From contig JARDVH010000031.1 of the NCBI GenBank assembly GCA_030324005.1, positions 4,079,708 through 4,143,707 of the forward strand: a stretch of DNA of 64,000 bases. The letters run 5' to 3'. A program made the position numbers and the translations under genes. The notes under the pieces are model-generated. The model had not been told where the DNA came from, did no database searches, and worked only from the letters and a program-made list of their open reading frames with translations. Below are positions 8,122 to 40,680 of the stretch, one piece after another. How positions within the stretch are numbered: position 1 is the first letter of the stretch; each line of letters opens with the position of its first letter. Source of the stretch: Negaprion brevirostris. Taxonomy: Eukaryota.

Positions 8122-8322
8122 ACACTCCCGTGCCTCGTTAGGATGTGCAGTAAAGAGAGGCTGCTGGAGGAACGGGTGGAAGGTGCTGAAACCTTGGCAT
8201 ATCTGATAGAACCTGATGTTGAGTTGCAGAGGATTGCCAGCATCACAGATCATCTTATTGCAATGCTCGCTGACTACTTTAAATATCCAAGTTCTGTCAG
8301 TGCAATCACAGATATCAAAAGA
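8122..8322 (+). CDS. ARMC8: ARMC8 exon ~11 (201 nt) [67 protein letters not shown]
   Basis: ctctgtttag| acceptor, |gtaagt donor, phase 0-0; peptide matches human as recalled. Confidence 0.98.
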
Positions 8323-9140: not shown

Positions 9141-9236
9141 CTTGACCACGACCTCAAACATGCTCATGAACTTCGCCAAGCTGCATTCAAGTTGTATGCC
9201 TCCCTTGGAGCAAATGATGAAGACATCCGGAAGAAG
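9141..9236 (+). CDS. ARMC8: ARMC8 exon ~12 (96 nt) [32 protein letters not shown]
   Basis: ttcttcag| acceptor, AAG|gtgagt donor, phase 0-0. Confidence 0.98.
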
Positions 9237-9302
9237 GTGAGTCTGGGAGAGGGGCGTCCCCCGGTCCTGGCAACCAACAGGCAGGGAGTGACGTCAACCT
9301 GA
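9237..9302 (+). CDS. ARMC8: ARMC8-beta isoform C-terminal extension (intron read-through) [21 protein letters not shown]
   Basis: In-frame continuation past the donor to TGA at 9300-9302; closely matches the human short-isoform tail (recalled as [21 protein letters not shown]); GC/CpG-rich relative to the surrounding intron. Confidence 0.88.
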
Positions 9303-9696
9303 GAACAAGGTGAAGAGAATTAACAGTGACTTTACGAAAGAGCATAATCAGATCTGAAGAATGAATGGGATTGACACTCATTTGTCTAGAGAAATGAGTT
9401 GTGACGTGTTCATGTTGGAATGACAAGTACTGGTGTTTCCTGTGTTGAACCTGCACCGGATCCTTAAATTACATTCTTTGCATGAGTTCGTAACAGTAGT
9501 AACAAAATAAGCACTGTGAAGTGTAGTGTATAGTACTGACTCACATAATGCAGTAGTACTGTAATGCCAGTTATATAAATGCTTGCCTACCTATCTGCTG
9601 CAAACCGGAAGTACTCAGCTTCTGTTTCTGTATCACTTTTAATTTGTGGCCTGCTGATGTGTTCATTTGTGTTGCTGATGTGCAAGTTTAATTGTA

Positions 9697-9702
9697 AATA
9701 AA
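9697..9702 (+). terminator. Candidate intronic polyadenylation signal AATAAA for ARMC8-beta
   Basis: First AATAAA after the beta stop (~395 nt downstream), followed by CA dinucleotides and a GT/T-rich tract (ggtagcttgttttct). Confidence 0.65.
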
Positions 9703-10909
9703 GCTTTGTGCAATGACATTGCTGGTAGCTTGTTTTCTGAATCTACAGTAAAGCAAAACACTGTTTCCAGATAACTTGAATAATGGCATTTAAAATGTAG
9801 TTGAATTTTTAATCCTTACACAGTGAGTGATAAGCCCAGAATGGCATCTTACCGTATCTCAAATAAGGGAGAACCGTGTTGTGATGCACATGTACCCATC
9901 AAGACTGAGAGCCACTAATGCTGGAAAATATGCATGCTTCCATATTGTCTGGAAATGTGATTGAAATGCCAACTTAAGAGTGTCCTTTTCCTGAACAATG
10001 TGGTGTAATCAGTCTCATTTATTTCCTGTATTCTTTGTGAGCAAGATTGTCAAATTTAACAAAGTAATGCTTTGGACTTTGAAAAGAGTCTGCTCACATT
10101 AATTTCCCCCTCCAGCAGTTGTCATCTTTGAATTAGAGTGAGGTCCTAGTATCTCACTGATTTGTTTAAAATCATTTCAGTTTTTTTAAATTTCAGGTTC
10201 AAAATACAGGAAATGGCATTTTGACCTTTTTTGTTCACAAATTGCAACTTTGCAGTCATCTGTTTCTAACAAAAATGAGTTGCCTACAGGAATAATAAAT
10301 TAGGATGAGCAAATCGTAGATATATCAGAATCGGATCTTGGAGGTGAACAGACCTAATGCTAAACATGTAGACCCCCAATCTGTTGTTCTGTGAGTCTCC
10401 ATTGTGCTTTTTCTGTGCTGGTTATGTTTGGTACAGAGAGAGTAATATTTAAGTATTGGTCAGGGCACCTGAAATGCCTTATTTATATAAAGTGACTTTC
10501 ATTGTGAGCAGTTACTACAAGTGTGTTTTTCAGCACCTTTGGGCAGAATTTGAGGATGCTAAAGTTAATTGAGAGGTAGGTGGGAGAAAGTGAAGAACAT
10601 CCTTTTAAACAATTTTGAGATTAAAAAGCACCTATTGCACTAGAAGCTTTTGCGCAGTTGTAGTGAAATCATTTTTATACCTTGGTTGTTTTTGTAGTAT
10701 TGGTGTAAAAGTATTTTAAGTTAACTTAATTAACTCAAATTATAGACTCAATGCTCAGGAAAAGGCTCTTTGCCCCACTTTACTTGCGCTGTCTCTACGT
10801 CTCCAGGTCTTGCTGTTCCTACATCCACTTTCAAATTTTACTGTTATATTGTCACCTCATTCGTCCTGCTAAAGTGAATTATTTCACACTTCTGTGTTAA
10901 TTTTTAAAA

Positions 10910-22054: not shown

Positions 22055-22137
22055 ATTATTGAGACTGAAAATATGATGGATCGAATTGTGACTGGCTTAG
22101 CTGAGTCTAGTATCAAGGTGCGGTTAGCTGCTGTCAG
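22055..22137 (+). CDS. ARMC8: ARMC8 exon ~13 (83 nt) [28 protein letters not shown]
   Basis: tttttgttatag| acceptor, |gtatgg donor, phase 0-2; not in the ORF track, read by eye. Confidence 0.96.
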
Positions 22138-40530: not shown

Positions 40531-40680
40531 AATATGGCTTTTCAAGCTGATCAGAAGATAAAGACAGACATTTTGCGAGGACTGAGTACAGAGCAGCTCT
40601 TCAGATTACTCTCAGATTCAGATGTGAATGTACTAATGAAGACTCTGGGACTCCTCAGGAATCTTCTTTCCACTAGGCCT
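40531..40680 (+). CDS. ARMC8: ARMC8 exon ~17 (150 nt) [50 protein letters not shown]
   Basis: long polypyrimidine tract ending in ag|, |gtatgt donor, phase 0-0. Confidence 0.98.

Follow-up and report, generated by a model that had tools for sequence, protein, structure and literature searches.

A probable short beta isoform of ARMC8 in the shark Negaprion brevirostris: homology of its tail with mammals and a likely retrocopy of its 3' UTR

The ARMC8 gene of the shark Negaprion brevirostris very probably gives rise to a short beta isoform, because a tail identical to that of mammalian ARMC8-beta at 18 of 21 residues is encoded at the start of intron 12 and because the genome contains a likely retroposed copy of the corresponding 3' UTR that ends 16 bases after the poly(A) signal. 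By analogy with the human protein, this isoform would join the CTLH ligase without recruiting GID4. The ARMC8 beta isoform has reportedly been known since the work of Kobayashi in Gene in 2007, and the shark form is a real ortholog of this known isoform. The depth and patchy loss of beta, together with a likely fossil copy that marks its 3' end, were not found in the literature searched.

A literature search, mostly of open-access papers, yielded no statement on how old or how well conserved beta is in the accessible parts of the texts. In the portions available, a paper on ARMC8 evolution treats beta as a human form only (PMC6680376), two reviews describe it for human only (PMC12687426, PMC9180843), and nothing further on its age was found in PMC11364545 or in bioRxiv 10.64898/2026.01.14.698769. 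In its accessible sections, the first of these reviews, published in 2025, counts among the open questions how CTLH complexes with alpha and those with beta differ in function (PMC12687426). The beta tail is described as flexible in the available text of the only structural study (PMC9932110).

Gene structure and the 21-residue tail

The window, by which the whole 64,000-nt stretch of analysed DNA is meant, carries most of ARMC8 on the + strand. Eleven coding exons were mapped up to exon 12, upstream of the window and within it. The first coding exon (residues 1-15) was not among them and is additional, and therefore the numbering of exon 12 fits. Exon 11 (8122..8322, + strand), which is common to alpha and beta, matched mammal and chimaera proteins at 67 of 68 residues in tblastn and was found to be single copy in a genome search. 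The last exon common to both forms, exon 12 (9141..9236, + strand), has its acceptor AG and donor GT and borders on the consensus 5' splice site of intron 12 (9237..9242, + strand; AAG|GTGAGT). The acceptor of exon 13 (22055..22137, + strand), the first alpha-only exon, was also seen, which gives intron 12 a length of 12,818 nt, and later alpha exons extend to 57272. Intron 12 thus combines an intact donor at 9237 with a downstream exon that continues the long form; in this species, the donor would be used for alpha and read through for beta. The ARMC8 exons were nearest to those of chimaera and skate (the exon at 40531-40680, for example, matched Callorhinchus at 50 of 50 residues versus 82% for bowfin) and therefore fit a cartilaginous fish. 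A GID4-family gene is present in the shark genome.

The exon 12 frame stays open past the donor for 21 codons and is closed by TGA at 9300-9302, so that tail and stop together occupy 9237..9302 (+ strand). The GC content of this segment is 65%, compared with 33-48% in nine exons and with 23-45% in the opening 66 nt of 13 other introns. The initial annotation had pointed out this in-frame continuation from the donor and had held that about 18 of the 21 residues match the end of human ARMC8-beta. All of this was borne out. The ending that it gave was correct, as the Armc8-beta chain of PDB 8A1I and human/chimpanzee and other mammal proteins end in it, and the human short-isoform tail aligned to the shark peptide at 18 of 21 positions. 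The 8A1I chain aligned across the entire 53-residue query (E 1.3e-25), and the alpha chain of 7NSC aligned to the exon part of the query only.

Identity to the shark tail was 20/21 in skate, 18/21 in human, chimpanzee and most mammals, 17/21 in Myotis and in the frog Ranitomeya, 16/21 in the frog Ascaphus, 15/21 in a turtle, the tail of which has a one-codon deletion, and 14/21 in tuatara. The shark-mammal identity of 86% lies within the range of clean neighbouring exon matches (81-99%). Judged by sequence, the match between shark and mammals is far beyond chance, and cartilaginous fishes and tetrapods thus have homologous tails. Altogether, 267 proteins were examined, which were gene models and ORF calls with some members hidden by clustering; 159 were spliced onward, 10 did not contain the exon end, and in the other 98 the reading frame continues into the intron. 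Beta-like tails, defined as those with 12 or more of the 21 residues identical, were found in 31 of these 98, including proteins from skate, two frogs, tuatara, turtle and many mammals.

Like mammalian ARMC8-beta (UniProt Q8IUR7-6 per PMC8567238; PDB 8A1I), the predicted shark form branches after the end of exon 12 into a tail of 21 residues, 18 of them shared, and lacks all exons from 22055 onward. It differs from the mammalian form at tail residues 12-14. The skate protein XP_032879440.1 (Amblyraja radiata, 113 aa, "ARMC8-like") shares exon 11, exon 12 and 20 of the 21 tail residues with the shark, whereas it is an automatic partial model that is not named beta and has no 3' end.

Two minor observations were made on these sequences. 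The deposited chain of PDB 8A1I contains two extra Ile between the end of exon 12 and the tail (401 residues versus 399 in the paper), which is perhaps a construct or deposition quirk. In skate genomes, short ARMC8-like models of exons 11-12 (P0001, P0121, P0122) lie on separate scaffolds; one stops after four tail residues and one has another end. These models may reflect fragmented assembly or duplicates.

The poly(A) site and a second copy of the 3' UTR

The beta 3' UTR occupies 9303..9718 (+ strand). Five TGTA motifs, putative CFIm-type sites, lie at 9522..9696 (+ strand; 5 in 201 nt), and four or more such motifs were counted in 9 of 292 windows, with a mean of 1.1. They are followed by the poly(A) signal AATAAA (9697..9702, + strand), the first AATAAA of intron 12, by a CA 16 nt after the signal (9717..9718, + strand), which is the likely cleavage site, and by a GU/U-rich stretch (9719..9740, + strand), which would act as the downstream element. 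Poly(A) sites are laid out with UGUA upstream, then the signal, cleavage 10-30 nt behind it and a U/GU-rich stretch downstream, and the shark elements stand in this usual order. The initial annotation had drawn attention to AATAAA at 9697 after about 400 nt of repeat-free sequence. The signal is located as claimed, but the hexamer by itself is at chance level, since it occurs in 29 of 93 windows of 420 nt taken without gaps from the downstream part of the gene. As far as a search of the shark's own genome with very common words skipped can show, the stretch is repeat-free: 9303-9718 matched two other places only, both of them pieces of the copy described below. Farther into the intron, a piece of a low-copy repeat at about 10041-10141 has a match of 79% on another contig, and AATAAA occurs a second time at 10294.

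Both ends of the UTR were found again elsewhere in the genome. A search with 9300-10800 gave two extra pieces, on contigs G000:C11742 and G000:C124. Positions 1-48 of C11742 match 9671-9718 at 96%, AATAAA included; the match departs from the gene at the CA 16 nt behind the signal and is followed by 8 nt with 7 A and then by unrelated DNA. On C124, a match to 9304-9395 (90%) is followed by a repeat and then by a gap in the assembly. Downstream of the C11742 piece lies an old dispersed repeat, for which a search gave 39 other hits among the 40 that were scored, and the sequence preceding the C124 piece proved to be the other half of this repeat. In six of eight empty-site copies fetched, the halves meet with an overlap of 2-4 nt; of the remaining two, one has a 12-nt overlap and the other about 360 nt extra. 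Because the flanks are contiguous halves of one old repeat, the simplest reading of the two pieces is that they are the termini of a single insertion, about 415 nt long, that comprises nothing but the beta 3' UTR. The copy begins within the last exon, at about 9304, and lacks an exon junction. This assembly has no sequence for its middle (9396-9670), and its ends, which lie on different contigs, are joined only via the repeat.

The same break was seen in DNA run X20, which comes from another organism. One X20 contig matches 9673-9718 and then runs on unlike the gene, and a second, which aligns to 9410-9699, differs from the gene at 22 letters and has 4 gaps, compared with 30 other letters in 1228 nt for the neighbouring intron contig (9673-10900). 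The first two of these X20 contigs appear to represent the same copy, which would be older than the split of the two species.

The second copy is very probably a retrocopy of beta mRNA. It resembles 5'-truncated processed pseudogenes in that it ends 16 nt after AATAAA, has an A-rich end and a short overlap, and is inserted in older sequence, whereas it differs from them in consisting of 3' UTR only, in having no exon junction and an A-run of just 8 nt, of which the last 3-4 A may derive from the target site, and in being split over two contigs. DNA-level capture or an assembly artefact, in which case beta in this shark would depend solely on the tail homology, would account for the short A-run, the 3-nt target overlap and the missing exon junction in a fragmented assembly. 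Such an origin is nevertheless improbable. In a post hoc count, a poly(A) hexamer was found 10-30 nt ahead of 63 of 1501 positions, and just 5 of 1501 also fall at a CA, as the 3' break does; furthermore, this break recurs in X20, and the copy has diverged from the gene (90% at its 5' end) and interrupts an older repeat. The opposite direction of transfer, with the UTR as a mobile element inserted into ARMC8, was rejected since no A-run is present at 9718 of the gene and the interrupted older repeat is found at the other site.

Since the likely retrocopy breaks off 16 nt past AATAAA, this lineage probably possessed a polyadenylated beta message. The copy likely marks the beta cleavage site at 9718 independently of any RNA data, and this position agrees with the expectation of the initial annotation that cleavage would occur about 15-30 nt past 9702. 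As to the 5' end of the copy (G000:C124 near 29904364), it lies within two bases of the beta stop, with short similarity between target and gene (window 9294-9304). This position may be due to chance or to reverse transcription having stalled at the GC-rich tail.

According to the proposed mechanism, splicing over the 12.8-kb intron after exon 12 would compete with cleavage at 9718. Splicing would lead to alpha with its GID4-binding half, and cleavage would produce a composite last exon and a protein of about 399 residues. Because there would be no junction behind the stop, the beta message would escape nonsense-mediated decay. The donor is a consensus site, which gives no account of its skipping in beta. 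Composite-exon intronic polyadenylation is known from the textbook cases of secreted IgM and soluble VEGFR1. The shark gene shares with this class a donor that is read through, a short intron-coded tail, an early stop and poly(A) site within a long intron, and a truncated product without the C-terminal module. It differs from the class in that the target is a ubiquitin-ligase scaffold and in that the tail is near-unchanged between sharks and mammals and absent from teleost-type sequences.

In the accessible text of PMC8567238, human beta is described as assembling into the ligase but being unable to bind GID4, and as lowering GID4-dependent ubiquitination while WDR26-dependent activity stays. 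In the available part of PMC11541570, ARMC8 appears in tables of intronic polyadenylation for mouse and human cells, with a share near 0.3 and higher values for two types of tumour; these entries are given gene by gene, with the intron not specified. Poly(A) sites of ARMC8 are also listed in the portion available of PMC7954529, in rows without positions.

Distribution and age of the tail

All 47 of 47 teleost-type read-throughs, a type assigned from its named members, scored 5/21 or less against the shark tail. Three crow models scored 6/21, and invertebrate-like read-throughs scored 1-3/21. The stop is retained in shark, skate, frogs, tuatara and mammals, with tail residues 19 and 20 variable; in the turtle model and in protein P0004, Trp replaces the stop and the frame reads on. 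The tails of tuatara and turtle carry non-conservative changes. Presence of the tail in the sampled vertebrates is well shown at the level of predicted proteins, whereas its absence elsewhere is only suggested, because the sample consists of gene models and ORF calls and clustering hides members. Three protein searches gave no named intron-reading protein from chimaera, gar, bichir, coelacanth, lungfish, chicken or lamprey among the matches listed, which in two of the searches were the best 120 of 951 and of 252 and in which clustering can hide such proteins.

Since the tail is common to cartilaginous fishes and tetrapods, its origin would go back to the common ancestor of jawed vertebrates, which lived more than 420 million years ago, or further. 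The long/short ARMC8 switch is likely as old as this ancestor or older. The dating of the alpha/beta switch to the jawed-vertebrate ancestor in the initial annotation is in line with the tail homology and the retrocopy, but the tail is not universal: the teleost-type read-throughs and the crow models do not have it, and in turtle and tuatara it is altered. Near-unchanged as it is in sharks, frogs and mammals, the tail points to the short form being an old, selected product and no mammalian splicing by-product.

In a metagenome scan, 10 distant ARMC8 loci were found, 0/10 with the tail; eight had no intron at this position and two had an unrelated read-through. Among the eight intronless loci, two may be cDNA-like. 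Several invertebrate-like ORFs possess the intron 12 position, with read-throughs unrelated to the tail. Because the intron occurs with unrelated read-throughs in distant loci and invertebrate-like ORFs, its position seems to be older than the tail.

Constraint on the tail and the adjoining 3' UTR

A proximal non-coding block of the 3' UTR (9303..9427, + strand) was found to be conserved, as the read-through of P0004 aligns to it with matches in different frames. The 47 residues of P0004 past the lost stop match two segments of the UTR, 9351-9371 and 9413-9427, each in a frame of its own (joint E 7e-4), and a gapped back-translation profile of this protein scored 45.2 at the UTR versus a maximum of 25.5 in 635 control windows. 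Because P0004 resembles tetrapods at residues 13-14 of the tail and its upstream intron has no match to the window, it likely comes from a distant vertebrate relative. The evidence for UTR conservation comes from this one protein. The 10-residue read-through of the turtle scored at background level against the UTR, a score reached in 157 of 635 windows. Together, the tail and the adjoining 125 nt of UTR probably constitute a single block under constraint.

The main constraint on this block is slightly more likely than not to act on the RNA, through the alpha/beta choice or the fate of the message, and the non-coding conservation and the two stop losses lean to constraint at this level. The initial annotation had proposed strong selection on the tail, either as a functional peptide such as a C-degron or as an RNA element. 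The tail is conserved, but a strict C-degron is weakened by the loss of the stop in the turtle model and P0004.

A main constraint on the peptide is a substantial possibility, though one to which we give less than even weight. The isoform would then be real, with selection keeping a flexible tail that serves as a binding motif or a degron, for example one that clears beta unbound to TWA1. Exactly 21 residues and the frame are retained in skate, shark, two frogs, tuatara and mammals, as would be expected of a selected peptide; however, protein searches detect in-frame tails only, so that this frame keeping is partly an ascertainment effect. The turtle deletion removes one whole codon, whereas the UTR matches shift frame, and the changes among shark, frog and mammals are mostly among small residues. 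The peptide reading has against it that the changes in tuatara and turtle are non-conservative, that the stop is lost in the turtle model and P0004, and that conservation continues beyond the stop. To our knowledge, the tail end fits no class of C-degron, which was also counted against this reading. In the accessible part of PMC6614414, knockout of TWA1 strongly lowers beta and not alpha, which favours the peptide reading, whereas just 5-9 tail residues were resolved in the crystal according to the available text of PMC9932110. AlphaFold2 on a rodent beta protein (18 rows) placed residues 268-357 at a pLDDT under 50 and was uninformative on the tail.

Constraint of some other kind is unlikely. 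In particular, the block could be a conserved DNA enhancer or a splicing enhancer for alpha, with the beta message a rare leak-through and the tail a by-product, as the reach of the conservation into non-coding sequence and the G-rich tail beside the donor might suggest. We regard this as improbable because a pure enhancer would not be expected to keep a frame open, with an identical stop, in shark, frogs and mammals alike, because the TGTA cluster, signal, CA and U-rich stretch stand in the order of a poly(A) site, and because a message in the germ line or early embryo would presumably have been needed to leave a retrocopy.

With regard to RNA structure, a tail hairpin that would hide the donor or explain the conservation was rejected as unsupported, since folding gave z from -0.29 to +0.84 in four windows and the pairing of the donor varied with the window. 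A predicted stem-loop recurred at 9250-9300, and its loop coincides exactly with the three residues at which shark and mammals differ. In a test of pair-keeping, from which three differences (a gap and two multi-step changes) were dropped beforehand, 11 of 15 one-step changes were compatible with the pairs (p 0.10 or 0.75, depending on the null). Rfam gave no match at 9300-9800.

Returning to this block of the tail and 125 nt of adjoining UTR, we tentatively propose, as a speculative scheme that is less likely to be right than the peptide reading above, that it is a single element that predates the shark-mammal split and dials the number of GID4 docking sites per CTLH ring. In this scheme, the RNA would set the choice between splicing and cleavage and the peptide would clear unassembled beta; teleosts and probably birds would have lost the element and would be natural knockouts, and some characiforms would have re-invented a short form one exon later. 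The findings single out a 21-residue peptide and about 190 nt of RNA, which are separately mutable. Zebrafish and perhaps chicken may be without beta, which would matter for work on the Pro/N-degron and on GID4 degraders in these animals.

Two RefSeq isoforms of characiform fishes, P0200 (Astyanax) and P0203 (Salminus), are 416 aa long and have a common short C-terminus that branches inside exon 13. They may represent a separately evolved short form in fishes without the beta tail.
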